Shown: piece after piece, positions 2,085-36,128 of the stretch
Position numbering within the stretch: the first letter of the stretch is position 1
Layout of the letters: each line of letters opens with the position of its first letter
NCBI GenBank assembly: GCA_049322615.1
Contig: JBMORX010000010.1
Location: 25,416-89,415, forward strand
Direction of reading: 5' to 3'
DNA length: 64,000 bases
DNA from: Patescibacteria group bacterium
Lineage (GTDB): Bacteria; Patescibacteriota; Microgenomatia; CAYGWK01
Translations under genes and position numbers: made by a program
Notes under the pieces: model-generated
What the model was told of the DNA's origin: nothing
Database searches by the model: none
The model's input: the letters and a program-made list of their open reading frames with translations, nothing else

Positions 2085-4835
2085 ATGAAAAGGATTTTGT
2101 CCATATTGGGACATTTATTGGCTTTAGGAGTGATTCTTTTATTTTGGTTTCCAATTGCCAAATCTTATTATCAGGCGGTACCGACCATTGGGGCTGATTT
2201 TTTACAATTCCCAACCTATGTCGCTTATATTAAAAACCATTTCCAGCTTCCCCCTGCTTCTTGGAAATACATTTGGTACTCTGGTTTTCCTTTAGTTTTC
2301 GATATGGCTTGGCTTCATATGTATTTGACCCTACCCCTGACTTTTTTTCTGAGTGTTGTTAATGCCTCTCGCGCTTATCTGATCTTGACGATGTTTGGAC
2401 AATTGGCTTTTTCTTATCTTTTGCTTTACGAGCTTTGCCGAAGTCGCTTTGTCTCCCTGGCGCTCACCCTCGCTCTTTCCTCCTCAGTTAATTTCTATCA
2501 TGGGCTTTGGGATGGGGGAACAGCCACTTTTTCGGCCACCCGAATGTTTCTTCCCTTAACCTTACTCTGGTTCGTCAAATATTTTAAAAGTAAAAATAAC
2601 AAATTTCTCCTTTTGTCAGGACTGATCATCGGCTTGGCGATCCTTGGCCACCCAGGCTCACTTTTTCTTATCATTCTCGGCCCGGCCGTCTTATTCTTTT
2701 TGTTTTGGCAAGATAAAGAAACTCCCCTTTTGAGCCTTAAGAAAATCTTAGGCACCATTGTTTTTACCTTAATCGGTTTTCTGATTGGCGGAGTCACTCT
2801 CTATCCAATTATCGAGCAGATTTTGACCCATCCTGGCTTTGCCCAATTCGGTCTGACGACTAAAATCCATGAAGATGCTTTAACCGGAATTTACAGCTTC
2901 AGCAATCCTTTTTTACTTTTTTTGTTTTTTCTTTTTAGCTTCTTAGTTTTCTTCAGAGGAAAGATTAGAAGAGTGCCTGAGGCGACTGCCTTTTTGATCC
3001 TTATCCTTTATGTTTTAGGTTCTTGCGTCCTTTATCTTATTGGCCATCATCCTTTATCTCAAGCTTTGGGACCGGGAAGAATTTGGTGGATTTTCTCTTT
3101 GGCTCTCGCGGGGGCAATTGCTCTTTTTTGGCAGGCTCTTTTTCCAAGTCGGGAGGGAAAATGGTGGGCGAAAAAAAATTTGCTTTCTTTTTTAAGCCTC
3201 TTGCTTTTTGTGCCTATTTTTGCTTCATTTTATCTTCCTAGCTTCAAAGAAAGACTAGATAAGATTACCGCTGAACATATGGGTTATCCTTCTAATGTTC
3301 AATTAGCAGTTATTAACGAAGACAGACAAGCAATCGAAAAAGCCATTGTTCCTTCATGGTTGAACACTCAATTAATTGATTACCGCTATTATGAAATCAG
3401 TCCCGGAGTAGAAACTTGGTGGAATTCAGTTTTTCCCCTACCCTTGGTTAAGGGTTATTATGGAATTTTTGGGGTCAAAGCGACTGACTGGCTTTATTGG
3501 GTTGATAATACGCTTTTGGGCGAGTATGTTTGGCATTTTGGCGTCCCTGAGGCGATTGCCAAAAAGCATGCTCTTTTTCTTATTGACTGGTATGCTATTC
3601 GCTATTTTGAGGGAGGAGGTTTGGCCTTGGCTGAGTATCTTGAGCAAGATCCAGGAGTGGTGGAAACCAAAACAGAAGTTAATATTGAAGCCAGTGAACC
3701 CCTCAAGCCCTATAAATTTTTTGATGAGATCACCTCGCCCATTATTCGCCCAACCAACTCACCAACGATTCTTATGGTGGGCGACACGGTCGCCTACGAT
3801 ACCTTCTTAAAGGTGTTGGCCACAGAAAACTTAAACTCGCGCTATCTTATTCCTCTTCATGGGCCGGAATATCTCGAGGATCTTTCTTCCTGGGACTTGG
3901 CAGATTTTGATGTTATTTTTCTTTACAGCTACAAATACCGTAACGAAAAAGATTTCCGTTCCCGACCTAATAGGGTTTGGGAAAAGCTTGAGGAGTATGT
4001 CCGAGCGGGGGGAAGGCTTCTGATTGAAACCGGGGAGGAGGTTATGGAATCTGATTCAAGCGCTCTTTCTTCTCGGGGTCAAGACATTCTTCCTGACGTT
4101 TTTCCGATAGAGAGAACCTTAAGAGGAGCCCTAGGAGAAAGTTGGGATTTGACCGTGACCGAGAGCCCAATTGTTGAGGGGATAGAATTTGGAAAATTTT
4201 CTCAACTTTTGTATGAAGGCTCTCCTTGGAAACTTTCTTATGCCTCAAATAGTGTTCGCCCCTGGGCGAAAACGATTTTATCTCAAGGAGGAAAGCCAAT
4301 TTTAGTTGAGGGCAAATTAGGGGAAGGGAAGGTTATCTGGAGCGGGATTAATCTTCCTTACCATTTTTTATATTATCTTAATCTAGAAGAGGGAGAATTA
4401 TTCAAAAATATTTTAGGAGAGATGGTTAGTTTAGGAAGGGAGGAAGATATTAAAACTGCTCGGGTTTGGCGAATCTCTCCGGAGAAAATTGAGGTTTCTG
4501 GAGAAAATTTTTCCGGGATAGTCTTTAAAGAGCAGGCCTATCCCGGCTGGCAAGGCAATCTTTTGGAGCCCCAAAACAAAAAACTTAAAGTTTATCGGGC
4601 TGGTCCCTATTTTATGTATTTTAAAATTCCCGAAGAGACAAAGGGAAAGATTAAAGCCAGTCTCACCTATAAAGGAGCCCCTTTGGGATGGTTATTATTT
4701 ATTATCAGCATGGAGACCATCATCTTTGTTTTCCTCGGTTTTATTTTTGAAAAAAGTCTTTCAAGGTTTATCTTAATCTTGAGCAGTAAGGTTGGAAGAA
4801 GGCTAAATACTTGGTGGGGGAAGGAGGAGGAATGA
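2085..4835 (+). CDS. Large polytopic membrane protein (GT-C-like N-terminal half, soluble C-terminal half), function unknown
   Basis: 916-aa ORF. About the first 400 aa are repeated hydrophobic segments, then a long soluble region and one C-terminal TM. Operon context with GT2 and radical SAM genes. Confidence 0.6.
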   Translation: MKRILSILGHLLALGVILLFWFPIAKSYYQAVPTIGADFLQFPTYVAYIKNHFQLPPASWKYIWYSGFPLVFDMAWLHMYLTLPLTFFLSVVNASRAYLILTMFGQLAFSYLLLYELCRSRFVSLALTLALSSSVNFYHGLWDGGTATFSATRMFLPLTLLWFVKYFKSKNNKFLLLSGLIIGLAILGHPGSLFLIILGPAVLFFLFWQDKETPLLSLKKILGTIVFTLIGFLIGGVTLYPIIEQILTHPGFAQFGLTTKIHEDALTGIYSFSNPFLLFLFFLFSFLVFFRGKIRRVPEATAFLILILYVLGSCVLYLIGHHPLSQALGPGRIWWIFSLALAGAIALFWQALFPSREGKWWAKKNLLSFLSLLLFVPIFASFYLPSFKERLDKITAEHMGYPSNVQLAVINEDRQAIEKAIVPSWLNTQLIDYRYYEISPGVETWWNSVFPLPLVKGYYGIFGVKATDWLYWVDNTLLGEYVWHFGVPEAIAKKHALFLIDWYAIRYFEGGGLALAEYLEQDPGVVETKTEVNIEASEPLKPYKFFDEITSPIIRPTNSPTILMVGDTVAYDTFLKVLATENLNSRYLIPLHGPEYLEDLSSWDLADFDVIFLYSYKYRNEKDFRSRPNRVWEKLEEYVRAGGRLLIETGEEVMESDSSALSSRGQDILPDVFPIERTLRGALGESWDLTVTESPIVEGIEFGKFSQLLYEGSPWKLSYASNSVRPWAKTILSQGGKPILVEGKLGEGKVIWSGINLPYHFLYYLNLEEGELFKNILGEMVSLGREEDIKTARVWRISPEKIEVSGENFSGIVFKEQAYPGWQGNLLEPQNKKLKVYRAGPYFMYFKIPEETKGKIKASLTYKGAPLGWLLFIISMETIIFVFLGFIFEKSLSRFILILSSKVGRRLNTWWGKEEE

Positions 4836-5713
4836 TCAGCTGCAGCCTCGGGGTCATGGCTTACAATGAGGAAAAAAATATTGCCCGGGCCTTAGAGGCT
4901 CTTCTTTCCCAAAAACTGAAGAAAGTGAAAATAAAAGAAATCTATATCATTGCCTCAGGCTGCACTGACAGGACAATTCCGATCACTAAAAGAATCGCCA
5001 AAACCGACAAACGGATTAAACTCTTGATTCAAAAAAAACGGGAAGGAAAGTCGTCGGCCGTTAATCTATTTTTAAAGCACGCTCGGAGCAAAATTGTCGT
5101 TTTGGTCGGGGCGGATACGCTCCCTCAAGAGGATGTCGTCGAGAAATTAGTGACCCCTTTTTTAGATCCCCAGATAGGGATGACCGGGGCTCACCCCATT
5201 CCGGTTGATCCGGATAATACCTTTTTCGGTTTTGCGGCCCATCTTTTATGGGAACTGCATCATCAAGTTTCTTTAAGCTCACCTAAAATGGGGGAGATGG
5301 TGGCTTATCGGAAAGTTTTTGAGAGAATCCCTTATGCTTCGGTAGTCGATGAAGCCACGGTTGAACCCCTAATTGTGGGTCAAGGGTATAAACTTCTTTA
5401 TGTTCCTTCGGCGATTGTTTTTAACAAAGGAACAGAGAATTTAAGGGAATTTCTAAAACAACGCCGGAGAATTCATACCGGACATCTAGCTTTAATTAAA
5501 GTCCAAGGCTATAGCGTTTCTACCTTGAGCAAAAGGCGGCTGTTTTTGGCTTGGCTTAAAAGTTTTAGGTTTGAGCCAAGATTTATTTTTTGGTCACCAT
5601 TAGTGGCTTTTTTGGAGATTGTCGCCCGGCTCTTGGGGACTTATGATTTCTATTTTAAAAAAGATAAGCACACAATTTGGGAAGTCGCTTACTCAACTAA
5701 AAGATTGAAATGA
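4832..5713 (+). CDS. Family 2 glycosyltransferase
   Basis: ATG 4832 after GGAGGAGG, ATGA overlap with the previous stop. GVMAYNEEKNI..., GADT (DxD-like), GT2-like layout. Confidence 0.75.
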   Translation: MISCSLGVMAYNEEKNIARALEALLSQKLKKVKIKEIYIIASGCTDRTIPITKRIAKTDKRIKLLIQKKREGKSSAVNLFLKHARSKIVVLVGADTLPQEDVVEKLVTPFLDPQIGMTGAHPIPVDPDNTFFGFAAHLLWELHHQVSLSSPKMGEMVAYRKVFERIPYASVVDEATVEPLIVGQGYKLLYVPSAIVFNKGTENLREFLKQRRRIHTGHLALIKVQGYSVSTLSKRRLFLAWLKSFRFEPRFIFWSPLVAFLEIVARLLGTYDFYFKKDKHTIWEVAYSTKRLK

Positions 5714-6783
5714 GGCGAATACTTTTTAAAATTCCATTTTTCTGGTTTTTTTATTCTTTTGGCTGGCCCAAGGTTTTGCCGGCCAACTATACATTCAGTC
5801 TGACTTTTAAATGCAATTCTCGCTGTCTAACCTGCAATATTTGGCAAAAGAGTGAAGAGGGGGAATTAACCCAGGCAGAATGGCAGAAAATCTTTTTGGC
5901 TTTGGGTAAATCGCCTTACTGGGTAACTCTTTCTGGAGGGGAGCCATTTTTAAGAAAAGATTTAATTGAAATTGTTAAAAATCTTTGCCAAATTTGTCAG
6001 CCAAAAATAATTACTATCCCCACCAATGGAATTTCAACTGCTAAAATCCAAAAAGATGTTCAGGCAATTTTAAAAGGTTGCCCCAAGACGCGTTTAATTA
6101 TCAACCTTTCTCTAGATGGAATCGGGGAAAAACATGATCAAATAAGGGGGGTTAAAGGTAATTTTGATAAAGCAATGGCAACTTATAAAAAACTGAAAAG
6201 GATAAAATCAAGAAATTTTGTCTTAGGAATTCATACCGTTATTTCAAGAGAGAATGTTAAAGACTTTTCTGAAATCTGCGATTTTGTTTTGGACCAACTT
6301 AAGCCTGATTCATATGTGACAGAAATCGCTGAACAAAGGGTTGAACTTGAGACAATGGGTAAAGATATTACTCCTAGTCTTGAAAATTATCAAAGGGCAG
6401 TAGATTATTTAGAGCAGAAGATGAGAAGGCAAAAATTAAAGGGCTTTTTCAAATTAACTCAAGCCTTTAGATTTACTTATTATGATTTAGTTAAAAAAAT
6501 CATGGAAAAAAAAGCCCAAGTTATTCCTTGCTATGCTGGGATACTTTCTTGCCAGATAGCCTCCAATGGCGATGTTTGGCAGTGTTGTGTTCGCGCCGAT
6601 GTTTTAGGCAATTTAAAAAAAGAAAATTTTGATTTTTCAAAGATTTGGTTTTCAAAAAAAGCTGATAAAATAAGAAAATCAATCAAAAATAGAGAGTGTT
6701 ACTGCCCATTGGCTAATGCTTCCTATACTAATGTTTTAATGAGCCCAACCTCAATGACTAAAGTTATCTTTAATTTTTTTTAA
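5710..6783 (+). CDS. Radical SAM protein (paralog of 990..2072)
   Basis: CNSRCLTC, SGGEPFLRKDL, PTNG, SLDGIGEKHDQIRGVKGNF, C-terminal CYCP. ATGA overlap with the upstream gene. Confidence 0.8.
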   Translation: MRRILFKIPFFWFFYSFGWPKVLPANYTFSLTFKCNSRCLTCNIWQKSEEGELTQAEWQKIFLALGKSPYWVTLSGGEPFLRKDLIEIVKNLCQICQPKIITIPTNGISTAKIQKDVQAILKGCPKTRLIINLSLDGIGEKHDQIRGVKGNFDKAMATYKKLKRIKSRNFVLGIHTVISRENVKDFSEICDFVLDQLKPDSYVTEIAEQRVELETMGKDITPSLENYQRAVDYLEQKMRRQKLKGFFKLTQAFRFTYYDLVKKIMEKKAQVIPCYAGILSCQIASNGDVWQCCVRADVLGNLKKENFDFSKIWFSKKADKIRKSIKNRECYCPLANASYTNVLMSPTSMTKVIFNFF

Positions 6784-7706
6784 TGAATGTCTTAATTACC
6801 GGCGGGACAGGCTTTATTGGTAAGCATCTAGTTGATGCTTTAGTCAAAAAAGGGCACCTGGTGAAGGTTATTGCCAGAAATCCCCAAAAAGCAGAGCCAG
6901 TGAAAAAGTTGGGGGTTAGGGTTGTGATTGGCGATTTAGGAAATAAAGAGTTTTTGAAAAAAGAGCTTGAGGGAATTGAAATTGTTTATCATTTAGCGGC
7001 TATTCCAGGCCAAGCCTGGGGCATTCCTTGGGAGGAATATAAAAAGGTGAATGTTGATTTTACCAAGAATTTGCTTAAAGCAGCCGTTCAAAATAAAATT
7101 GAAAAATTTATCTTCTGCAGTTCGGTTCAAGCTGTTGATCCCTCGACTTTTTATGGCAAATCAAAACTTGAGGCAGAAAAAGAAGTTAAAAAAAGCAATT
7201 TGGAATACGTTATTGTCAGGCCTGGCGTAGTTTATGGACCAGGTGATAAGCAGGCAATTTTGCGGATTTGTCAGCTAGTTAAGAAGGGATTTTTCCCTTT
7301 GATTGGCGGAGGGAAGACAAAATTAGCGATTATTTTTATTGATGATTTAATTGATCTTTTTTTGCAATGTCTTACTTCGAAGGTAAAAAATAAAACAATT
7401 TGGGGAATTGGTGAAGAGATTACTTATAAAAACTTAGTCAAAATAATAGGCAAGGAGTTGGGCAAGCCCTGTTGGCAGGTTTTTTTACCGGCGCCATTGG
7501 TAAAAACAGTCGCTTTTCCTTTGGAGGCGATTTCCTCAATCACTGGGATTCGACCTTTGGTTACCCGAGCCCAGGTTGATTTTGTTACTTTTGGTTGGTA
7601 TTTTGCTGTTCCCAAGGAACAAAAACGAATTTGGCAGCCGAAGGCAAAGTTTGCCGAAGAAATTAAAAAAACAATTGAGTGGTATAAAGAAAATGGCTAT
7701 CTATAA
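6783..7706 (+). CDS. NAD-dependent epimerase/dehydratase (SDR family)
   Basis: VLITGGTGFIGKHL Rossmann motif, YGKSK (YxxxK). TAATG start/stop overlap. Confidence 0.85.
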   Translation: MNVLITGGTGFIGKHLVDALVKKGHLVKVIARNPQKAEPVKKLGVRVVIGDLGNKEFLKKELEGIEIVYHLAAIPGQAWGIPWEEYKKVNVDFTKNLLKAAVQNKIEKFIFCSSVQAVDPSTFYGKSKLEAEKEVKKSNLEYVIVRPGVVYGPGDKQAILRICQLVKKGFFPLIGGGKTKLAIIFIDDLIDLFLQCLTSKVKNKTIWGIGEEITYKNLVKIIGKELGKPCWQVFLPAPLVKTVAFPLEAISSITGIRPLVTRAQVDFVTFGWYFAVPKEQKRIWQPKAKFAEEIKKTIEWYKENGYL

Positions 7707-8091
7707 AAAACTCCCGCTTTGGCAAAAATACAAACCCAAAATTTATGGTTTAGGAGAGGTTTATGAGCAGATTTCCGTAGAAAGAAAGAAAAAGAGATTA
7801 AAGGAAAAATTTGGGTCAGGAATTTTGTTTCTTTGTCCAAATAAAAAGCATTCTGGTAGGGGGTTAGCCCTAGAAGAACTGCAAGAAAAAGTCCGCCAGC
7901 AAAAATATCTAATTTTAACCAGTGGCTTTGTTGATTCACCACCGTGGCGATCTTCTCCTGGCAAAAGAAAAGGCTTGAAATTACCCCTTTTCTTGGCGAA
8001 AATAATTTTTTATGGCTTGAGTTTCTTGGAGTCTTTTTGGGAAGGAGAAGAAAATTCTCATATAGTTTATGTTTTAGGCAGAAAAAAGTAA
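7693..8091 (+). CDS. Hypothetical basic protein
   Basis: ORF 7576..8091 trimmed to the ATG at 7693 so it does not overlap the epimerase C-terminus. No recognisable motif. Confidence 0.4.
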   Translation: MAIYKKLPLWQKYKPKIYGLGEVYEQISVERKKKRLKEKFGSGILFLCPNKKHSGRGLALEELQEKVRQQKYLILTSGFVDSPPWRSSPGKRKGLKLPLFLAKIIFYGLSFLESFWEGEENSHIVYVLGRKK

Positions 8092-14701: not shown

Positions 14702-14774
14702 GGCCCCATCGTCTAGTGGTTTAGGACATGAGGTTTTCAGCCTTAAAACCAGGGTTCGAATCCCTGTGGGGTCA
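14702..14774 (+). tRNA. tRNA-Glu(UUC)
   Basis: Hand-folded cloverleaf: GGCCCCA/TGGGGTC acceptor, anticodon loop TTTTCAG, T-arm CAGGG-TTCGAAT-CCCTG. No encoded CCA. Confidence 0.85.
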
Positions 14775-16473
14775 CAGACAAGGATTTTGAGGTTTTAAAA
14801 TCGCTTTTTAGGGCGAAAAGACGGGCTAATTTAGGTGTTCGATTAACTAAATCATCATAAGTTGGCAACTCTTCGAAAAGTAACCCAAACATAGCTGCGT
14901 TTCTAAGGGGTTCGGAGCTTGAGAACAATAATTCTTCGGGGTGTTCGATGTAATATTTCAGGTATCCTAAGACTACCTGGACATCCACTTGTTGCTTTTC
15001 CTTTCGATCACGGATAAGAGTCGCTTGGGCTTTTTCTTGCTCCAAGTTGTCAATATCATCTTCTAAAAGCTTGATGGCTGCCACAGAAGTTAAGACTTTA
15101 ATCTTTTCTTTTAGGTTCTGAATTTCTTGTTCAATTTGGGTGACTCTTTGACCAAAGTTTATTGTATCATCAGATAAATTCTTCTCCCGCTTCTCCCACT
15201 CCTCCAAAACGATTTGCCTGAACCGAATAAAATACTCCTCACTAAACTTAACATCTTCTACGAAGGATTTAATTGTTTTATGAAACTCTGCAACTGGAAT
15301 CCCGATATATTTATGGTTCCTCCCACAGTTGCCGCAGTGATAATAACCATGACGTTCTCCGTTCTTGCTTCTGGAGAAAGAGGCTAAGAGAGACTTTCGA
15401 CAGATGGGACATAAAACATAGTGACGGTAAGGAAATAGGGGATTTTCCTTTAACTTCTTTTGCCCCCAAGGCGATTTTTGGTTTCTTAGAAGAGATACGG
15501 TTCCATCGGGATTTTCTACGATAACAATCTTGCCTCGGTTAGCTTTGTTAAACATGTCTATTGTAACTAAACCATCGAACCGTTCCTTAATTGGTTTACC
15601 TTCTGTCCAAAACTCATCGTTAATTCCAGCGTAGATGGGATTCTGAATATATCGTTGAAATTGTTTCACTGTTAATTTATTGCCACCGCCAAAACCTATT
15701 ATTTTCTTTTTATCGTTGGGGTCATGTCTTTTAAACTTTCTTGATCTAAAACCCATGTCGTTTATTTCCTTTACAATCTCTTTATCATCCAAATTTCCCT
15801 GAATCCTTAGCTCATACATGCGAATAAACCAAGGCGCTTCGGTAGGATCGCCTTCAAGAATTACTCTCATCCCACGCTCGGTTTCTATTTTTTGGTTGCG
15901 AAATCCCATCGGTGCCTGCCTAACATGGTATCCCATGCGAACATATCGAATTTCTGCCCCGATTAGTCTTGTCAAAATCGTTCTGACCTCCTCACGTGCC
16001 CGCTCTGCATCAAGAAGTTCAGTAATCCAGGTAGGGGAAAACTCTGACCAGTCGTATCGGACGTTTAGGTGTGCCAGGGTATTTATTTTTTGGGTGCCGA
16101 TAATTCCCATAACGTCTACAAGCTGGATTCCTAATTTTGAAAGTTGTGTTTTAAGAAGACCGTAGATGGTCGAACCACCTCTGGTAAATCTATCTATGCT
16201 TTTAGTGAAGAAGAACCTGATTTTGTTCGCGGGGTTTTTACAGTATTCTATAGCTTTTAAGACAGGTTGCGTGTCCAACTCGCCTGAAGCTGACTCAGTA
16301 AATTCGAATATCTTCCTAATTTCTATTCGGCAGTTAAGAAGTGTTCCTAATTGTTCTGCTCGAATTTTTATTTGTTCAAGCTGCTCTTCTGGAGAGTCAC
16401 CCGTCATCTCCTGCTTAAGAGAGCTTACCCGAATATCCGCAACCGCGTATTGAATTTCCCGCTCATCCTTCAT
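14743..16473 (-). CDS. Large serine recombinase (integrase)
   Basis: N-terminal YAVADIRVSSLKQ (catalytic Ser), recombinase domain, zinc ribbon CPICRK...CGNCG, coiled coil. The last 32 nt overlap the tRNA-Glu 3' end on the opposite strand. Confidence 0.85.
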   Translation of the reverse strand: MKDEREIQYAVADIRVSSLKQEMTGDSPEEQLEQIKIRAEQLGTLLNCRIEIRKIFEFTESASGELDTQPVLKAIEYCKNPANKIRFFFTKSIDRFTRGGSTIYGLLKTQLSKLGIQLVDVMGIIGTQKINTLAHLNVRYDWSEFSPTWITELLDAERAREEVRTILTRLIGAEIRYVRMGYHVRQAPMGFRNQKIETERGMRVILEGDPTEAPWFIRMYELRIQGNLDDKEIVKEINDMGFRSRKFKRHDPNDKKKIIGFGGGNKLTVKQFQRYIQNPIYAGINDEFWTEGKPIKERFDGLVTIDMFNKANRGKIVIVENPDGTVSLLRNQKSPWGQKKLKENPLFPYRHYVLCPICRKSLLASFSRSKNGERHGYYHCGNCGRNHKYIGIPVAEFHKTIKSFVEDVKFSEEYFIRFRQIVLEEWEKREKNLSDDTINFGQRVTQIEQEIQNLKEKIKVLTSVAAIKLLEDDIDNLEQEKAQATLIRDRKEKQQVDVQVVLGYLKYYIEHPEELLFSSSEPLRNAAMFGLLFEELPTYDDLVNRTPKLARLFALKSDFKTSKSLSVTPQGFEPWF

Positions 16474-16501
16474 GGTTTTATCCTCCTTCCATCTTACTAT
16501 T

Positions 16502-16750
16502 TTACGATATAAACCTCAAGGCTCCTTTCTCCTTATCCTCAAGAATCAAATCAATTAAACGATTAGCTAAAATTCTCATCCTGTCTTCTAGGTCTTGTTC
16601 TAATTGAACGCCTGAGATGGTAGTAATCCCCGACATAGTTGTATAGACCTCGGTAAATTTATCCAGAGTTGAATTAGTTTCTTGACCAAGAACTGTTTCT
16701 AATAAGACGTATGCCTGTGGTTCGCAGTAAACTGGCAGTAATTCAAGCAT
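16502..16750 (-). CDS. Hypothetical protein
   Basis: 82-aa ORF tightly packed behind the integrase gene. No motif. Confidence 0.4.
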   Translation of the reverse strand: MLELLPVYCEPQAYVLLETVLGQETNSTLDKFTEVYTTMSGITTISGVQLEQDLEDRMRILANRLIDLILEDKEKGALRFIS

Positions 16751-16752
16751 GG

Positions 16753-17001
16753 TTAGTAGTCCTCCAAAAAGGCAGACAAGACTTGGTTAAAATCTTTTTT
16801 GTTGGTATATTCACCATCGTTATAAGACCCACCGCCATAACTCACCCGCAGGTAAACTTTTAAAGGCCTATTTTGCCAATTAATCCTGCGTATTTTAGTG
16901 TAGAAACGGCGAATCGAGTGGGTCTCGTATCTTTCTACCAATTTACCGTTTTTGATAACCCGAAAAGTAAAATTTAGCCTGTTTTTGTTTTTCTTTTCCA
17001 T
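16753..17001 (-). CDS. Hypothetical protein
   Basis: 82-aa ORF, 2-nt gap to the next gene. No motif. Confidence 0.4.
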   Translation of the reverse strand: MEKKNKNRLNFTFRVIKNGKLVERYETHSIRRFYTKIRRINWQNRPLKVYLRVSYGGGSYNDGEYTNKKDFNQVLSAFLEDY

Positions 17002-17123
17002 ACTACCTCCTTAATCCTTATGTCATATATGTCATGTTTAGTGTCATATATGCTTTATTTCTTATAAGGGAGAAAAACATATTAGACTGAGAACATAGTC
17101 TTCTTACATATTCGGCTGATAAC

Positions 17124-17432
17124 TTAAAACATATCTTTTTCATAGCTTGGTTCTTCCATGGCTTCCTTCATCAAATATTCGTCATAACTTTTTAGAATTC
17201 CGTTTTTGATTGCTTGCCAGTCTTCAGGAGAATCTGTCTTGAAAATAGGCCTCCAACCATGGGGGGATAAATAACTAGGAGGGGTTACATAATTTGCTCC
17301 ACTCTCATCTCGGAGAACTTTGAAACCTTTGACCAAAAAACCGTCGAAGTGAATATCGGCACGGGCGATAACTTCACCTTTGTTAGCTTTGAAAATATCA
17401 ATCGAAAGAATTTTAAGTTTGGCTGCTTCCAT
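17124..17432 (-). CDS. SpoVG-like protein
   Basis: VIARADIHFDGFLVKGFKVL..G.NYVTPPS resembles the SpoVG core (A.A.I.fd..fvv.dikV...G.fVamPS). Confidence 0.45.
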   Translation of the reverse strand: MEAAKLKILSIDIFKANKGEVIARADIHFDGFLVKGFKVLRDESGANYVTPPSYLSPHGWRPIFKTDSPEDWQAIKNGILKSYDEYLMKEAMEEPSYEKDMF

Positions 17433-17685
17433 GATTTTTTCCTTTTTCCTTCATCTCAAAAACCATGTCTCGATAACTTTCTACCGAATCCAGTAAATCT
17501 TTTGCCTGAACTAAAGGGGCTTGTCTGCTTAGATAGGCGTTAACCAATTTCTCGCACCTATCTTTGGGGGCAAAAAGAAAATATATGGTCGTGCCAAGAA
17601 GTTTGGAACCAAGAAATTTAACATCAGGCTGAATCAGAAGATACGGCGTTAATTGTTTATCCTTTGTCTCAAATATATCGTTCAT
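17413..17685 (-). CDS. Hypothetical protein (DUF5659-like pattern)
   Basis: 90 aa. TIYFLFAP...CEKLVNAYLSRQAPLVQAKDLLDSVESYRDMV resembles the DUF5659 family from memory. Not verified. Confidence 0.35.
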   Translation of the reverse strand: MNDIFETKDKQLTPYLLIQPDVKFLGSKLLGTTIYFLFAPKDRCEKLVNAYLSRQAPLVQAKDLLDSVESYRDMVFEMKEKGKNHGSSQT

Positions 17686-18079
17686 AATTTTTTCCCAACA
17701 AAAAAAGCCGCGAGCTTTTCACTCGTGGCTTAAACTTTTCCCACCTCGTTGTGGGATTTTAAACCCTTTATGATTTTATTTTACCCCTAAAATTTCGTTT
17801 GTCAATAGGCACTTGATGGACAACTTCAGAACCTATTTTACCTCAAATAAATCAATAAATTCCAACTTTCTTTATTTAGGAACCGATTTTTATCAAAACG
17901 ACTCCCAGAATCATATTGGGAAAACAGTAGCTTAAGGGAAAATTTGTTAAAGAAGACAATCCGTTCCTCAAAATAAGGAAATTCAATTCAATTCAATTCA
18001 AGTCAATTCAATTTAAGAAAAGATAATTCAAGTTAACATCGCTATTATACCAGAAAATTTGTATATTTTCAACTTCGTC

Positions 18080-18610
18080 TTACCCTCGCCAGCTCTCTAG
18101 TTTATCCTTGCAAGATAAGAGGGCTTCCTTAACTTCCTCTGCCGCCTTTAAAAGAGGCTGGTCTAAAAATCCTCCACCATAAGAAACTTTTCCTAAATCA
18201 TAATCAACTAAAACGTTATATCGATGAATTTTGGTGTAGGATTTTTGCAAATTTTCCTGTAGTTCCTCACTCAGAAAATAGATATCTCCCTTGGCGGTCG
18301 ACCAGGCTTCCGTTATAAACCGTATTTTTGCGTTATTAACCATAATATTTTCAGTTAACGCAAGATTTTCGTTAACTTCTGCCAATAATCGTTTTACCGT
18401 GCTTGCCCTGGCTTTTTCCTCTTCTTCTTTTCGCTTTTCTGACTCTTGTTCATAAACCGCTTTAATACTTTTCTCGGCGGCCTTAATCGAACCAAAATAT
18501 GATAACAATCCACCGATAACGGCTCCTATCAGACCGCTTAACAAATTACTTAGTTCCATGCTTAGACAATTATACTCCTCTCGGAGGCGATTACTAAAAG
18601 GGGGACTCAA
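18080..18610 (-). CDS. Membrane-anchored coiled-coil protein, partner of the DUF4238 gene
   Basis: 176 aa. One N-terminal TM (LLSGLIGAVIGGLLSYFG), charged helix EKRKEEEEKARA. 17-nt overlap with the upstream gene. Confidence 0.5.
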   Translation of the reverse strand: MSPPFSNRLREEYNCLSMELSNLLSGLIGAVIGGLLSYFGSIKAAEKSIKAVYEQESEKRKEEEEKARASTVKRLLAEVNENLALTENIMVNNAKIRFITEAWSTAKGDIYFLSEELQENLQKSYTKIHRYNVLVDYDLGKVSYGGGFLDQPLLKAAEEVKEALLSCKDKLESWRG

Positions 18611-19544
18611 TTTTTATACCTGGTTTTCTTGGCATCTTGTCAATCTTGCTCTTTTTAACCAGGTTCAAAAGTTGTTTTCTTTTCCTTGAGATGATAAACC
18701 TATCCGAAAAAAATATTGTCCTAAGGTTAAAATTGTTGATTATCTTATCATCTGCGTCCTGCCAAAAAGTCACCCCACCGTATTTGTGCATATATAGACA
18801 AATTCTAGAAGATAAAGGGAGGGTTAATTCGGCCAAACTGATATGATAAGGCTGAAGTGGGACGGCTCCAAATCTCATGACCGAAAAAGGGTTATCAGAG
18901 GTGAGGAAAAGATTATTTCTTGCTGACCTTACAAAAACCCAATTAAGACGAAAGAATATCCCGTAAAATTCTTTAAAGGACTCCAACATAAAGGTCAGAT
19001 GATATTCCTTCGGCACTTCTATCTTATATTTGTCTTCCTTAATAAATTTCATCGCCTCTTCTGGTGTTATATCGAATTTTTGGCCAGTGTTCCGCTCGAA
19101 ATTTTCAATAGTTTTCTGGGCCCGTTCCTCGTTAAAAAAGCTCATCCTTAACATAATTTTTGAAAATTGCTCGTAGGAATAACTCACATCTCGCCTGAAG
19201 GCTGTAGTTCGTAAGTATTGCGTGGTAACAAATTCACACAGGTCTCTTCTCTCTTCTGGCAAGTTAGGCAAAGTGCCCTTTTCAAGTTTTTCGATAACCC
19301 TGTTTGCCCTTTCTTCAATACTTTTTGCGAAAAGGTCAATTTCGATACTAAGGTTTTTGTCACCATCTTTAGTATGGAAAGTATAAAAATCCCTCTCGAT
19401 TGTCGTGTCTTTTGTAGGTTGTTTTCTCAACTCTTTCTTTTCCCTATCGTAAACCCAAACCATGGAATTGGTGTCGCTAAAACGCTTTAGGTAAAAATTG
19501 GGCATGGTGTGCTGTTTAACTGGTGCCCTTGGCTGGTTTTTCAT
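18594..19544 (-). CDS. DUF4238-family protein
   Basis: N-terminal HTMPNFYLKRFS matches the H-x-x-P-x-FYL-x-x-F signature I associate with DUF4238. 316 aa. Confidence 0.55.
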   Translation of the reverse strand: MKNQPRAPVKQHTMPNFYLKRFSDTNSMVWVYDREKKELRKQPTKDTTIERDFYTFHTKDGDKNLSIEIDLFAKSIEERANRVIEKLEKGTLPNLPEERRDLCEFVTTQYLRTTAFRRDVSYSYEQFSKIMLRMSFFNEERAQKTIENFERNTGQKFDITPEEAMKFIKEDKYKIEVPKEYHLTFMLESFKEFYGIFFRLNWVFVRSARNNLFLTSDNPFSVMRFGAVPLQPYHISLAELTLPLSSRICLYMHKYGGVTFWQDADDKIINNFNLRTIFFSDRFIISRKRKQLLNLVKKSKIDKMPRKPGIKIESPF

Positions 19545-19603
19545 AATTCACCCTTATATCGGATATTATACCGTTTATTGCCCAAAACAGTTAAAATATA
19601 AGT

Positions 19604-20137
19604 ATGGTTAGGAAGTATGATTGGCTTAAATTACAGCAAGAATTTATAACGGGTGGCTGGCTAACCGTCAGTGACTTCTTCAGGTCAAAGGGTGTCCCCT
19701 CCAACTCAAGAACACGCGCGAACGCTAAGGGATGGCGTGAGAAAAAAGTTGCCTACGGAAAAAGGGTGATTGCCGAGGTTAGAGAAAAAACAATCGAATC
19801 GGAAGCTGAAATACGGTTAAGACAACAACGGGCGGCAAAATATCTCCAGTATAAAGGCTTAAAGAAGCTGGAAGAACTGCCAGTCGAGAAACTTGATACG
19901 AAAGAGGCGAGAAAGTTGCTCGTGGATGGATTGCAACAAGAAAGGGAAGCTTTGGGTCTTGATAAGGACATAAAAGCCACGCAAATCAATATCAGTTATC
20001 CTTCTAGGACTGAATTAGATAAATTTATTGAGACCGCAACTTACGAACAAATTCTTGAGCTTATCGCCGAAGTTAAAAAGGAAAAGGCAAGAAGAAAATC
20101 AACTCTCGCATGCGAGAGTCTTCGAAACAAACTATAA
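19604..20137 (+). CDS. Hypothetical protein (phage small-terminase-like N-terminus?)
   Basis: YDWLKLQQEFITGGW.TVSDFFRSKGVP...ANAKGWREKK resembles the HTH N-termini of phage small terminase/packaging proteins. Weak. Confidence 0.3.
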   Translation: MVRKYDWLKLQQEFITGGWLTVSDFFRSKGVPSNSRTRANAKGWREKKVAYGKRVIAEVREKTIESEAEIRLRQQRAAKYLQYKGLKKLEELPVEKLDTKEARKLLVDGLQQEREALGLDKDIKATQINISYPSRTELDKFIETATYEQILELIAEVKKEKARRKSTLACESLRNKL

Positions 20138-31455: not shown

Positions 31456-31847
31456 CTAGCACCTTAACAATTGAAGAGAACCGCATTTATTCTAATTCAT
31501 GGCCTAATTTTTATTAAAGCAAATGGTGGATGCCTTGGTGGCAAGAGCCGAGGAAGGACGCGGCAGGTGGCGATACTCGTCGGGGAGAAACCTAGCATTC
31601 TTTGATCCGGCGGTTTCCGAATGGGGCAACCCGGCGCAGTGAAAACTGCGTCAAGCGCTGTTTCACTGCGATATTAAATAGTAAATAGTAAAAATCAAAA
31701 ATACATATTAAAATTCAAAAAGATTTTTCTCTTTAAAATTTTACTATCTATATTTACTATTTAATTTTTAATATTTGATATCGCTGCGAAGCAGCGTTGG
31801 GGAACCACCCGAACTGAAACATCTAAGTAGGGTGAGGAAAAGATAGA

Positions 31848-32030
31848 GCTTGTGCTTCGCACAAGTTTCCGAATGAATCCGAATGCTTTTCATTGGTCTA
31901 AAATCTATTCGGATAAATTCGGATGAAGAACTTGACTTGAAAGTTAGTTTCAACATCCGAATAAATCCGAATAAACAAAATCAAGAAAGCGTATTAGGAC
32001 TAAATTCGGATACTCGCGCGAAGCGCGAGC
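31848..32030 (+). repeat. ~184-nt multi-hairpin insertion element, 23S copy
   Basis: Colinear with 24161..24344. Long identical runs: gcttgtgcttcgcacaagtttccgaat, attcggataaattcggatgaagaacttgac, caacatccgaataaatcc. Confidence 0.85.
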
Positions 32031-33116
32031 AGATTCCGCAAGTAGCGGTGAGCGAAAGCGGAAAAGCCTAAACTCGTGCGGAGCACGAGTTCGCTGAACT
32101 ACGCTGATTCATACGCTGAACTACGCTGAAACCTAATTTTCTTCTGCGTTAATCCGCGTCTTGATCTGCGTTTATCGGCGATCTCATGCTTCGCATGAGA
32201 GTTGGAGGACTCCAACGTGGGAGTGTCGAGGGTAGTCGAAGGACATGGAATTGTCCACCAGAGAAAGTGAAAGTCTTGTAGACGAAACCTGAAACACCCC
32301 TAGGAGCACCTAAGTACCATGGGGCAAATACCCTGTGAGAATCTGGCCGAACCATCGGCTAAGGCTAAATACTCTTGCTGACCGATAGTGTACCAGTACC
32401 GTGAGGGAAAGGTGAAAAGAAGGGTTTAAAACCTAGTGAAATAGAACCTGAAACCGTTTGCTTTCAAACAGATAGAGGCCCGGGAGTGAATTCTGTTTAC
32501 AATCTTCAGCGATTTTCAGCGTTTTGTTCAGCGTCAATCAGCGCTAATCGCTGATAAACGCGGATAACTACGCGGATTAACGCTGAAATAATTGTAGATA
32601 GTACTCACTTCCGAGCTAATATCGTGCCTATTGAAGAATGAACCGGCGAGTAACTATGTGTTGCGTTTTGGTTAATCCCATTTAAATGGGAGAAGCCGTA
32701 GCGAAAGCGAGTCTTAATAGGGCGTTAAGTAGCACATAATTGACCCGAAACCGGGCGAGCTAACCATGGGCAGGGTGAACCCGCCTAAATCGGCGAGGGG
32801 AGGCCCGAACCCGTTGCTGTTGCAATAGCATGGGATGACCGGTGGTTAGAGGTAATATGCCAAACGAGCCCGGAGATAGCTGGTTCTCCCCGAAATATAT
32901 ATAGGTATAGCCTTAATTTTAACTCCTCCTGAGGTAGAGCACTGGATGGTCTCGGCAGCGCAAGCTGTCGTGATCAACCAAACTCCGAATTCGGGGGCGA
33001 GAAATTGAGGAGTCAGAACGACCGGGCTAAGCTGGTCGCTCGAGAGGGAAACAACCCAGACTTTCGTCTAAGGTCTCAAAACTTTGGCTTAAGTGGAAAA
33101 GGAAGTATTTACCCTA

Positions 33117-33153
<37 letters not shown>

Positions 33154-34122
33154 AAAAGAAAGCGTAACAGCTCACTGGAAGACCCGTCTCGACTCAGTCG
33201 AGCCGAGGCGGATTGGGTGGGTGCGCCGAAAATTTACCGAGGCTAAAAGCCAATACCGAAGACAAAGGTTTCGTGCAGAGCACTGCTCTGCGCGAGGCAG
33301 TAGGGGAGCGTCCCGATAGCAGTGAAGTCCTTCCGCAAGGTCAGGATGGAGCTGTCGGGAGTGAGAATGCCGGTATGAGTAGCGAAAGTCCGATAAGAAT
33401 TCGGACCGCCGAAAACCCGAGGTTTCCCCCGCAATGTTCGTCAGCGGGGGGTTAGTCGGTCCTAAGCCAAGTCCCCGATTTAATCGGGGAGTAGGCGATG
33501 GAGGAGCCGTTTATATTCGGCTACAGGAAAGAAATCATTTTTAGTCGGGGATTGACAGAAATGGAAGAGCCAAGTCTCGAAATGACACGGGATTTAAGTT
33601 ATAAGGCAGTTCCGATAGGAAAATCCATCGGAACGTTTTAACCGAGTAACAAATAAGAGTCCAACCCGCAAGGGAAGGGCAATTTGGTAAGCTTTCAATT
33701 CTTGAAAAAAGATTCGCGACGAACCCGAATAGTCTTACCATTCGCCTTAGTACATTTGTACTGCGGCTTATGGAGCGACTTAACGGGTCTAGGATTTCTT
33801 TTTTACCGTACCGCAAACCGACACAGGTGGGTTGGACCAGAAGTCTAAGGCGAGCGGGAGAAGGAAGTTTGAGGAACTCGGCAAAAAATCTGGGCGTAAG
33901 CTATGCAAGATGCCCTCCCCCACACCAAATTTTGGTGTGGGGGTGCAACAAAAGATTGTTTGGCGACTGTTTAACTAAAACACAGGCCTCTGCAAAGGGT
34001 AATACCCAAGGTATAGGGGCTGAAGCCTGCCCAGTGCCGGAAGGTTATGGGGACTTGTCCTTCGGACATTTGCCCGGAGGGCGAGAAACTTAAGCCCCGG
34101 TGAACGGCAGCAGTAACTATAA

Positions 34123-34539
34123 ACGAAAGTATTGTAGTTATAAAACTTGGCTATATGCTGGAAAGTCCGTCCTGAAAAAAGAATAGCATGCAGTGGTACC
34201 CTTGATACCGTGATGTTGTACTATTGTAATAGTACAGTGAAACAAAAGGCGATATAAAGGGTAAAAATCCACCTGCTGCGGACAATCAGCAGGAAAGACC
34301 AAGAAATATCAAATATAAAATATCAAAAAGTAAATATACAGATTAAAAATAAAATATTTTAATTTTGCTTTGTATTTTTGATATTTAATCTTTAATTTTT
34401 GATTTTCTTCGGAATCCTCAGAGACTATACGCCAAGGTCGCCGAATTGGCGACATGAGATAGTCCGACCTCCCAAGAGATTGGGAGAGCCGTAAACAATC
34501 GGTCTTAGGGACGTCAAACGTCCCGAGTAACAAAGTGAA
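34123..34539 (+). other. ORF-less group I-like intron in the 23S helix 69-71 region (~E. coli 1917-1921)
   Basis: Splits gtaactataa | c.gttcgatggtagcgaag. Contains ggctatatgctggaaagtcc, cagagactatacgcc and gagatagtcc core-like strings, and itself carries an AT-rich word hairpin (about 34300-34400). Confidence 0.6.
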
Positions 34540-35137
34540 CTGTTCGATGGTAGCGAAGTCCCTCGTCGGGTAAGTTCCGACCCGCACGAAAGGCTAAACG
34601 ACCAAACAACTGTCTTGAACTTTCACCCGGCGAAATTGAAATGGCTGTGAAGATGCGGCCTACATGCTCTTGGACAAAAAGACCCCGTGGAGCTTTACTA
34701 TAGCTTGGCATTGGGTTGGGTTTTGAAATTGTCTAGCGTAGGAGGGAGCTTGTGCGTAGCACAAGCACGCGGATAAACGCTGATTTTGACGCCGATTGAC
34801 GCTGATTTTTTTTCAGCGTTCTTCAGCGTTTTATTCAGCGTAATTCAGCGTGCTCGCGCTGCGCGCGAGCATTAATGTAACACCTCTCTTTTCAAGACTT
34901 CAATTCTTACCTATGGGCTTTGCAAACAAGCTCGGGAAAAGTGTCAGGTGGGTAGTTTGACTGGGGAAGTCGCTTGCTAAAAGGTAACGCGAGCGCACAA
35001 AGGTCGGCTTAGTCCGGATGGAAATCGGACCGAACGTGCAAAGGCGAAAGCCGGCTTGACAGTGAGACCGACAGGTCGAACTGGTGCGAAAGCAGGTCTT
35101 AGTGATCCCCCGCCTGTTCGTGGGAACGGCGGGGCTT

Positions 35138-35174
<37 letters not shown>

Positions 35175-35218
35175 GGACCCGAGAGTCCATATCGACGGTC
35201 CGGTTTGGCACCTCGATA

Positions 35219-36128
35219 AACAAGAGTCGATTGTCGAGGTTAAACTCAGCTCATAACGGTGAAATCCTTATCATTTTAGAACCCAGCTTGAGAATGTTAA
35301 AATAAATGAGAGGACAATACCGTGGGAAGTTATTGGGAAAACAAAAACTTACAGAGACGATGGGTTCTTCTTAAGAAAGGCTTGCGATTGACACAAAAGC
35401 AGAGATCAGTGTTAATTGGTTCCTTACTTGGAGATGGAACATTGAGACGTGGCATAAGAGCAATCAATGTTAATTTTAAAGTTGAACACGGTTTGCGTCA
35501 GAAAGAATATGTTTTCTGGAAGTATCTGGTTTTCAGAAATTGGGTATTTACTGAACCTAAATTGAGTTACAGATATAGAGATAATGGGAAGAGATATTTA
35601 AAATCTTGGTGGTTTAGGACAGTTCGGCACCCTGTTTTAACCAAGTATTGGAAGCATTTTTACTCTGGCAGGAAAAAGATTATTCCAGATTTAATCGACA
35701 AACTGTTTGATTCATTGGTTTTGGCTGTTTGGGTCATGGATGACGGGTGTTATCAACACGGAAGAATTGATATTAGCACCTATGCTTTTACACTTAAAGA
35801 AATCCATCGTTTACAGGATGCATTAAGGACGGTGTTTGCTCTTGAATCTCACTATTTCAAGGATAGAGAAAAAGGTTATCGGATATATTTCTCTGTTTCG
35901 GAGACAAAGAAAGTTATAAATTTTATTCGTCCTTATATAATTCCTTCAATGCAGTATAAAATTGGTTTATCCCAACAACCCCGTAACGACTGATCCCTGA
36001 AGTATGCGCGCAAGTGCTTAATTTTGGGGTGAGATGGAAAGAATTCTTTCTTCCATCACACGCTGAGTCCTGGACTGTTTGGCCCAGGAAAGGTATAGTC
36101 TACACCATTAGTAATATTGGATTTTGTG
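35219..36128 (+). other. 23S intron with LAGLIDADG ORF in the peptidyl-transferase-centre region (after CACCUCGAU, ~E. coli 2500-2504)
   Basis: Exon ggcacctcgat ends at 35218 and gtcggctcatc resumes at 36129. Confidence 0.7.
35322..35993 (+). CDS. LAGLIDADG homing endonuclease (double-motif monomer)
   Basis: LIGSLLGDGTL and LAVWVMDDGCY motifs. 223 aa, GTG start. Confidence 0.8.
   Translation: MGSYWENKNLQRRWVLLKKGLRLTQKQRSVLIGSLLGDGTLRRGIRAINVNFKVEHGLRQKEYVFWKYLVFRNWVFTEPKLSYRYRDNGKRYLKSWWFRTVRHPVLTKYWKHFYSGRKKIIPDLIDKLFDSLVLAVWVMDDGCYQHGRIDISTYAFTLKEIHRLQDALRTVFALESHYFKDREKGYRIYFSVSETKKVINFIRPYIIPSMQYKIGLSQQPRND

Follow-up and report, generated by a model that had tools for sequence, protein, structure and literature searches.

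Two consecutive minus-strand genes were analysed in a 64,000-nucleotide (nt) stretch of contig JBMORX010000010.1 from a Patescibacteria group bacterium (positions 25,416 to 89,415 of the contig; hereafter the window, to whose first letter all window positions refer). The upstream gene encodes a DUF4238 protein of 316 amino acids (aa), and the downstream gene, referred to here as the partner, encodes a membrane-anchored protein of 159 aa. Both are cargo on an integrative element that abuts a tRNA-Glu gene, in agreement with the tRNA-linked island on which the first-pass annotation had placed them. The same annotation had proposed that the two genes form a defence module. The comparisons reported here instead favour, at somewhat better than even chances, two adjacent and evolutionarily independent cargo genes, the DUF4238 gene being a candidate single-gene anti-phage effector.

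The 316-aa open reading frame (ORF) opens with MKNQPRAPVKQHTMPNFYLKRFS in the ORF list, and its assignment to DUF4238, first suggested by this opening, was confirmed by Pfam. PF14022 was matched at E=1.1e-44 (153.4 bits, against a gathering threshold of 27 bits) over almost the entire profile, residues 10-289 corresponding to profile positions 1-280 of 281, and the domain was present in 25/25 homologues found. Proteins identical to both gene products are present in NCBI on a 161,724-bp contig of a Patescibacteria group bacterium metagenome-assembled genome; the annotation of the 316-aa protein there is ‘DUF4238 domain-containing protein’, and phrog_29785 of the PHROG collection was matched as well. 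Both motifs of the Pfam family, the N-terminal H-x-x-P-x-x-Y-L-x-x-F and the S/T-D-N-P motif, are present in the window protein, which also retains all the residues that are invariant (H12, F22 and D217-N218-P219) or nearly invariant (P15, Y18, T215 and S216) in the DUF4238 alignment. Among homologues down to 24% identity, the invariant set is dominated by polar or charged residues (H12, D33, R34, Y54, E68, E77, D217, N218, N273, D281 and R282), which argues for a catalytic or ligand-binding site and not for a scaffold. A structural model predicted from 25 sequences was confident (predicted local distance difference test score, pLDDT, 89.5; predicted template modelling score, pTM, 0.86); it shows beta-hairpins at the N-terminus, a block of six helices and, at the C-terminus, a beta/alpha region. 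Neither a membrane segment nor a signal peptide was found in this protein.

Among the PADLOC models, which were matched individually as profile hidden Markov models (HMMs) and without pipeline-specific thresholds, DUF4238-Pers (PDLC03000) recognized the 316-aa protein at E=4.2e-12 (44.2 bits), and no other model matched either of the two proteins at E<=0.1. The single-gene DUF4238 system is the one which we take to be named ‘Rst_DUF4238’ in DefenseFinder. Judged from these sequence matches, the window gene is best regarded as a new, distant member of the known single-gene DUF4238 defence family. The defence association that had been proposed for this domain is upheld both by the profile match and by the protection against phage T7 conferred by a family member (PMC9122126). 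Viral counterparts were sparse: the only match of the DUF4238 model in the structure database BFVD was a protein of the P2-like Stenotrophomonas phage Smp131, a tblastn search of 50,697 GenBank phage records with the two proteins gave no match, a pattern scan of GTDB species genomes and IMG/VR revealed no close DUF4238 relative, and a further viral scan with the distant DUF4238 subgroup (A9) yielded nothing. Homologues of both ORFs were found at E=1e-54 to 1e-149, and both reading frames are well beyond chance.

The longest reading frame of the partner (18080-18610, minus strand) has 176 codons' worth of protein, starting from a TTG at 18610. The 176-aa ORF of the first-pass annotation therefore exists, but the 17-nt overlap with the DUF4238 gene that was reported with it arises only if this TTG serves as the start. 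The N-termini of all partner homologues align just before MELSNLLSGL, NCBI calls the protein at 159 aa (as a hypothetical protein), and the nearest cluster representative likewise has 159 aa; because these three lines agree, the most likely start is the ATG at 18559, which leaves a gap of 34 nt behind the DUF4238 stop codon (18596-18594). Of the single transmembrane (TM) helix and the charged coiled coil ascribed to the partner, a hydrophobic N-terminal segment and a charged helical stretch were recovered. In the 159-aa form, a moderately hydrophobic, glycine-rich N-terminal segment reaches a Kyte-Doolittle peak of 1.67 at residues 7-25, the charged stretch lies beyond it, and the AlphaFold2 model (15 sequences, pLDDT 86.8) shows one continuous helix from residue 3 to 70 followed by a helical bundle. 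No significant match was obtained in Pfam, PADLOC, PHROGs, NCBIfam or PDB sequences. A function was not read from the fold, as its structural matches were generic four-helix bundles (talin rods, designed proteins and chemoreceptor sensor domains). Exhaustive HMMER searching gathered a family of 144 clusters at E<=1e-3, 66 of them at E<=1e-10, mostly of 150-180 aa, in which the invariant positions are an S-G-x-x-G-x-x-x-G motif in the membrane helix together with E61, N65, K78, Y108, N115, Y120, G130 and D133.

Whether the two genes belong together was examined at comparison loci, labelled L001-L025 and L047-L051, in which labels joined by a slash (L005/6, L015/16, L001/2/19) stand for one context. 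DUF4238 was sampled at nine independent loci with 28-71% identity (L005/6 and L007-L014) and at five distant loci on viral contigs, and the partner in five contexts (L001/2/19, L003, L004, L020 and L021). Close partner homologues numbered only four in an index of 5.8 billion proteins, and L020 and L021 were added by a pattern scan of GTDB genomes. With a profile HMM, a partner-family ORF was found at none of the nine DUF4238 loci (0/9), nor in the full set of other DUF4238 loci down to 24% identity (0/14), and the DUF4238 profile HMM detected no DUF4238 gene in the partner contexts (0/5). On these counts the two-gene module is unsupported. No neighbour of any kind was conserved throughout the 14 other DUF4238 loci. 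The closest DUF4238 homologue (71%) is followed, ∼100 nt after its stop codon, by the end of a convergent gene, and the five distant copies on IMG/VR contigs are all solitary. Elsewhere the gene downstream of DUF4238 is a 246-aa protein of unknown function (L009), a Schlafen/AlbA_2 protein (SLFN_AlbA_2; L010), an HTH-like (helix-turn-helix) protein and then a serine recombinase (L008) or a 202-aa protein of unknown function (L014), and there is none in the same direction in L005, L007 and L011. Conversely, the related element L021 has the partner family and lacks DUF4238. A type II toxin-antitoxin pair was considered and dropped, since neither an antitoxin-like DNA-binding fold nor co-conservation was found.

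The surroundings of the partner homologues indicate a mobile life of their own. These homologues have an AT-rich upstream region and an AAGGAG ribosome-binding site, and a partner-containing segment of 0.6-1.1 kb, 83-92% identical at the nucleotide level, is common to otherwise different contexts in metagenome-assembled genomes (MAGs) assigned to different phyla. Because of these expression signals and the shared segment, the partner appears elsewhere to be a stand-alone mobile cassette that brings along a promoter region and a Shine-Dalgarno sequence of its own; the identity of the cassette across these MAGs points to recent transfer or to a binning error. In L020, the homologue (3956-4456) lies between a PDC-S02-type PD-(D/E)xK nuclease (PADLOC, E=1e-52), a type IIG restriction-modification (R-M) fragment and a SIR2 protein, and in L001 (5927-6427) it stands beside a T5orf172/SeqA-C protein; these settings suggest that the partner family has its own tie to defence islands, unconnected with DUF4238. 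In both L001 and L020, the partner homologue is followed by the same multi-TM 153-aa gene, no remnant of which is present in the window. In L021 the family occurs as tandem paralogues (3986-4474 and 4476-5300). Close DUF4238 homologues also appear to live in defence-island-like neighbourhoods, with a block of a C5-methyltransferase (C5-MTase), a 311-aa protein and Vsr in L005 (389-2815), a type III R-M system and the Schlafen/AlbA_2 protein in L010 (130-4756 and 6936-7826), and SocA_Panacea with a small overlapping ORF in L008 (1652-2527).

The extent of the carrier element was defined by comparison with its sister L015/16. By blastn, two blocks of the window, 14753-16677 and 19613-21627, have 83% nucleotide identity to L015, the second block corresponding to L015 8010-10026, and positions 16678-19612 are unaligned. 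As the homology with the sister DNA begins at 14753 and stops at 21627, the island was placed at ∼14753-21627 (6.9 kb), and as 16678-19612 is unshared between arms that are 83% identical, DUF4238 and the partner lie in a variable slot. In L015 this slot holds instead an S-adenosylmethionine (SAM) methyltransferase (6285-6890, minus strand; PADLOC mad2, E=2e-16) and a 321-aa protein without a family match (7025-7990, plus strand), which together may be another defence-type cargo. The slot of L021 holds the partner-family gene and its tandem paralogue, in an element that also has a homologue of the 90-aa gene, and further cargo variants were seen in L009, L010 and L021. The features of the locus are collected in Table 1.

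Table 1. Features of the DUF4238-carrying element and its junctions, with protein identities to the sister element L015/16.
Feature	Position in window	Strand	Evidence or remark	Identity in L015/16
tRNA-Glu(UUC); left element junction at its 3' end	14702-14775	+	ARAGORN	
Large serine recombinase (integrase), 576 aa	14743-16473	-	phrog_95 integrase, E=3.7e-28	87%
Four small left-arm genes: 82, 82, 102 (weakly SpoVG-like) and 90 aa	16502-17685	-	ORFs	first 82-aa, 63%; 90-aa, 48%
Non-coding spacer, 394 nt, 31.5% GC	17686-18079	-	Pentamer repeats, two promoter-like sites, terminator-like hairpin	
Partner, 159 aa: N-terminal Gly-zipper membrane helix, charged stalk, helical bundle	18080-18559	-	Unnamed family; putatively independent cargo	
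DUF4238 (PF14022) protein, 316 aa; candidate single-gene anti-phage effector	18594-19544	-	Pfam	
Divergent intergenic region DUF4238/terS, 59 nt	19545-19603	.	Promoter-like site for DUF4238	
Orphan small-terminase (TerS) homologue, 177 aa, assigned by position	19604-20137	+	Synteny; conserved DUF4238 neighbour	81%
Membrane protein with Pro/Thr-rich linker, 269 aa; right arm	20362-21171	-	ORF	84%
Cro/cI-type HTH regulator, 73 aa; right arm	21278-21499	+	Pfam HTH_3, E=2.8e-14	94.5%
Right end of the element	21500-21627	.	Sister homology stops at 21627; tRNA-Lys at 21749	

The integrase matched the Pfam Recombinase domain below threshold (E=1.3e-3), and beyond the sister element it is 49% identical to the protein of L021 and 25% identical to that of L009, in which Resolvase, Recombinase and Zn_ribbon_recom domains were recognized. 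Its ORF and the tRNA gene lie on opposite strands and overlap at their 3' ends, and the same arrangement was found with tRNA-Lys in L015 (3294-5096 and 3326-3398 for integrase and tRNA, respectively), tRNA-Glu in L009 (1334-2857 and 1299-1372) and tRNA-Ile in L008 (4055-5743 and 5718-5790), so that the coding sequence for the integrase C-terminus spans the attachment junction. No direct repeats of at least 14 nt flank the island, as expected for a serine integrase. Among the small left-arm genes, the 102-aa gene resembled SpoVG below threshold (E=4e-5), and the first 82-aa gene and the 90-aa gene have homologues in L021 as well as in the sister element. The 394-nt spacer downstream of the partner contains TTGAA/AATTC pentamer repeats at 17980-18009, promoter-like sites at 18072-18044 (11/12 matches, with a TG extension) and 17805-17778 (11/12), and a terminator-like hairpin at 17725-17711, directly before the 90-aa gene. 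It could be a small RNA gene or a regulatory region; Rfam gave no match to it, and a scan of the whole island revealed only tRNAs and rRNA. In the right arm, the 269-aa membrane protein showed weak family matches in Pfam and PHROG, and the HTH regulator has counterparts of 51% and 44% identity in L010 and L018, respectively.

A short distance beyond the element and ahead of the rRNA operon, a stand-alone 78-aa GIY-YIG ORF (21935-22171, plus strand; Pfam E=9e-16) lies between tRNA-Lys and tRNA-Gln. The 16S rRNA gene that follows (22676-25051) spans 2376 nt and includes a group I intron at 23474-23703 (Rfam, 57 bits), the 23S gene (31503-35313) is ∼890 nt longer than the model, and ∼3.7 kb separate the end of the 16S gene from tRNA-Ile (28806). 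Candidate Phyla Radiation genomes typically carry insertions in their rRNA genes.

On the other side of DUF4238, and transcribed divergently from it, lies the 177-aa gene. Homologues with 53-54% identity occupy the same divergent position beside DUF4238 in L009 and L010, and the intergenic region is conserved at 59-61 nt in the window, L009 (4578-4638) and L010 (5922-5982). The conserved junction includes GGTATAAT, which coincides with the promoter-like site of DUF4238 detected by consensus scanning on the minus strand (TTAACT-18-TATAAT, 19594-19565). As this divergent junction is kept in three elements, the conserved unit appears to be the DUF4238/terS pair and not DUF4238 with its downstream gene. 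The 177-aa family, with 22 members, had no match in Pfam, PHROG or PDB. Its distant members (35-43% identity) are located directly upstream of a GpA-type large terminase (TerL), with TerS followed by TerL, portal and MuF genes in L017, L022 and L024 and by TerL before the contig end in L025. The order TerS-then-TerL was also found in 15/21 IMG/VR viral contigs, which brings the phage loci with this arrangement to ∼20. It is because of this synteny, and without a profile match, that we assign the family by position to the small terminase subunit.

No TerL was found in the flanks of the orphan terS copies in the window, L015/16, L009, L010 and L018, and none of the other genes of the element had a structural-protein PHROG match. 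The window element and its relatives (L015/L016, L021, L009, L010 and L018) form a family of ∼7 kb, with an architecture of 6.7-6.9 kb composed of a large serine integrase, small conserved genes, a cargo slot, an orphan terS, a PT-rich membrane protein and a cI-like HTH regulator. Integrase, regulator and TerS homologue are thus present without TerL, portal or capsid genes, and the window and L015 differ in a cargo slot that lies between conserved arms, features by which phage satellites are recognized. Because integrase, cI-like regulator and orphan terS occur without structural genes in a conserved architecture, these carriers resemble phage satellites that have a hotspot for defence or cargo genes. 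For the narrower proposal that the island represents an undescribed satellite-like family of Patescibacteria with a terS-adjacent defence hotspot, we put the chances slightly below even. A full-text literature search found no paper describing phage satellites in Patescibacteria and no description of how defence genes are exchanged in this group.

In the mechanism that we favour, DUF4238 is most likely a soluble protein of the cytoplasm that acts on its own after phage entry, an autonomy which the comparison of loci supports. It would be transcribed from its own promoter-like site in the divergent region, and H12, D33/R34, Y54, E68, E77, D217/N218, N273 and D281/R282 would form an enzyme-like polar site with which the protein probably blocks competing or helper phages by an abortive-infection-type attack on nucleic acid or nucleotide; the substrate and the abortive outcome are what we infer. 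The partner would occupy the swappable slot downstream of DUF4238 by chance, is probably co-transcribed with it in the window, and at best guess is a membrane-acting exclusion or abortive-infection factor. Several points weigh against this reading. The protection against phages that is known for DUF4238 is that by an E. coli homologue, and the DUF4238-Pers match covers no more than the N-terminal two thirds of that profile (positions 7-222 of 309). The enzyme-type mechanism is drawn from the invariant polar residues only, in a fold for which the structure search returned no solved relative. The sample of close relatives is small (nine DUF4238 loci and five partner contexts), and many of them are on short contigs. 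Finally, DUF4238 and the partner are co-directional and 34 nt apart, as is compatible with an operon, the consensus scan between them found neither a promoter-like nor a terminator-like site, and the variable downstream gene is tightly spaced also in L009 (5 nt) and L010 (9 nt).

This last set of observations is also what would be seen if DUF4238 were a conserved sensor or adaptor that pairs with whichever effector gene lies directly downstream, the membrane-anchored helical bundle in the window, the Schlafen/AlbA_2 protein in L010 and the 246-aa protein in L009, so that the window pair would be a functional two-gene variant. A different gene indeed follows DUF4238 in all three elements in which it abuts terS, an E. 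coli TIR system shows that DUF4238 can work with another effector (PMC11350192), and the invariant Gly-zipper of the partner's membrane helix fits an oligomerizing membrane effector. However, DUF4238 homologues at 71%, 65%, 48% and 28% identity have no co-directional downstream gene and the five distant viral-contig copies stand by themselves, one DUF4238 protein suffices for protection in E. coli (PMC9122126), and the partner homologues, as stand-alone cassettes with their own expression signals, never adjoin DUF4238. We therefore consider such a pairing unlikely.

The conserved junction with terS could alternatively mean that DUF4238 serves the satellite-like element in its life cycle or in interference, with the helper phage or packaging as the target, and that the partner is unrelated cargo. 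It is the DUF4238/terS pair with its 59-61-nt region that is kept in the window, L009 and L010, where the other neighbours differ, and a TerS without TerL is a hallmark of satellites. Yet the sister element with the closest terS (81%) has no DUF4238, which is thus dispensable for the element, and the HMM survey found no terS near most DUF4238 homologues (L005-L008 and L011-L014); moreover, interference with a helper phage would itself be an anti-phage activity. A dedicated life-cycle role is accordingly judged distinctly improbable, and we are more doubtful still of a satellite hotspot in which a DUF4238 sensor or adaptor is coupled to a swappable effector, here a Gly-zipper protein that would kill or depolarize the infected cell. 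Least likely among the rivals is that neither gene is anti-phage and both are selfish or neutral hitch-hikers in a decaying prophage remnant: the experimental support for DUF4238 does come from outside this clade, the partner has no annotated relatives and the DUF4238 fold is uninformative, but both ORFs are intact with all family-invariant residues present, the architecture of the element is held at 83% nucleotide identity with intact genes in a sister genome, relatives of the genes reside in defence-type settings (R-M systems, the PDC-S02 nuclease and SIR2), and one DUF4238 family member has been validated experimentally (PMC9122126).

With DUF4238 preferred as an autonomous effector, its occurrence in a Patescibacteria genome helps annotation and is not surprising. 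Together with a confident model that has no solved structural relative, the invariant polar residues, now defined as a set, provide mutagenesis targets for this defence family. The carrier element and the membrane-protein family are the more interesting leads than the gene pair: the former has the appearance of a Candidate Phyla Radiation phage satellite that bears a cargo hotspot, and the 159-aa protein defines an unnamed membrane-anchored family of ∼140 clusters that appears to move as single-gene cassettes and is found in defence islands.

Among known systems, Dazbog (DzbA/DzbB), to which the first-pass annotation had tentatively attributed DUF4238, shares with the window genes that both are recently described anti-phage loci with uncharacterized domains. 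Its characteristic domain is, however, DUF262, which is linked to the sensing of modified DNA (PMC10952713). Pfam detected no DUF262 in the window proteins and DUF4238-Pers was their sole PADLOC match, so that the identity with Dazbog was rejected. One validated TIR system of E. coli contains a DUF4238 domain alongside the TIR effector (Nat Commun 2024, PMC11350192) and is a case in which a DUF4238 module is accompanied by a separate effector domain; in the window, by contrast, no TIR domain is present in or near the two genes, and the neighbour is a membrane-anchored helical-bundle protein.

The carrier shares several traits with the hotspot-bearing elements of P2, P4 and the phage-inducible chromosomal islands (PICI): it is small and integrative, it encodes an integrase together with a cI-like regulator and a TerS homologue, it has neither TerL nor portal or capsid genes, and its internal slot varies between near-identical elements and holds defence-type genes. 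It differs from them in its serine integrase that overlaps a tRNA gene and in its size of only 6.9 kb; primase/replicase or capsid-remodelling genes were not recognized in it. The closest parallel is the single DUF4238 protein encoded in a P2-prophage hotspot of E. coli, which conferred strong resistance to T7 and whose molecular function was stated to be unknown (Rousset 2022, PMC9122126). The window protein is very distant from it, with an HMM match confined to the N-terminal two thirds, and its carrier, in a Patescibacteria MAG, is a serine-integrase element of 6.9 kb that has an orphan terS, instead of a P2 prophage. Nevertheless, it belongs to the same PF14022 family and matches the HMM of that system, it appears to be autonomous with no conserved partner, its only viral structural match is from the P2-like phage Smp131, and, as the validated gene does in the hotspots of P2-like prophages, it occupies a variable cargo slot of a phage-related element.

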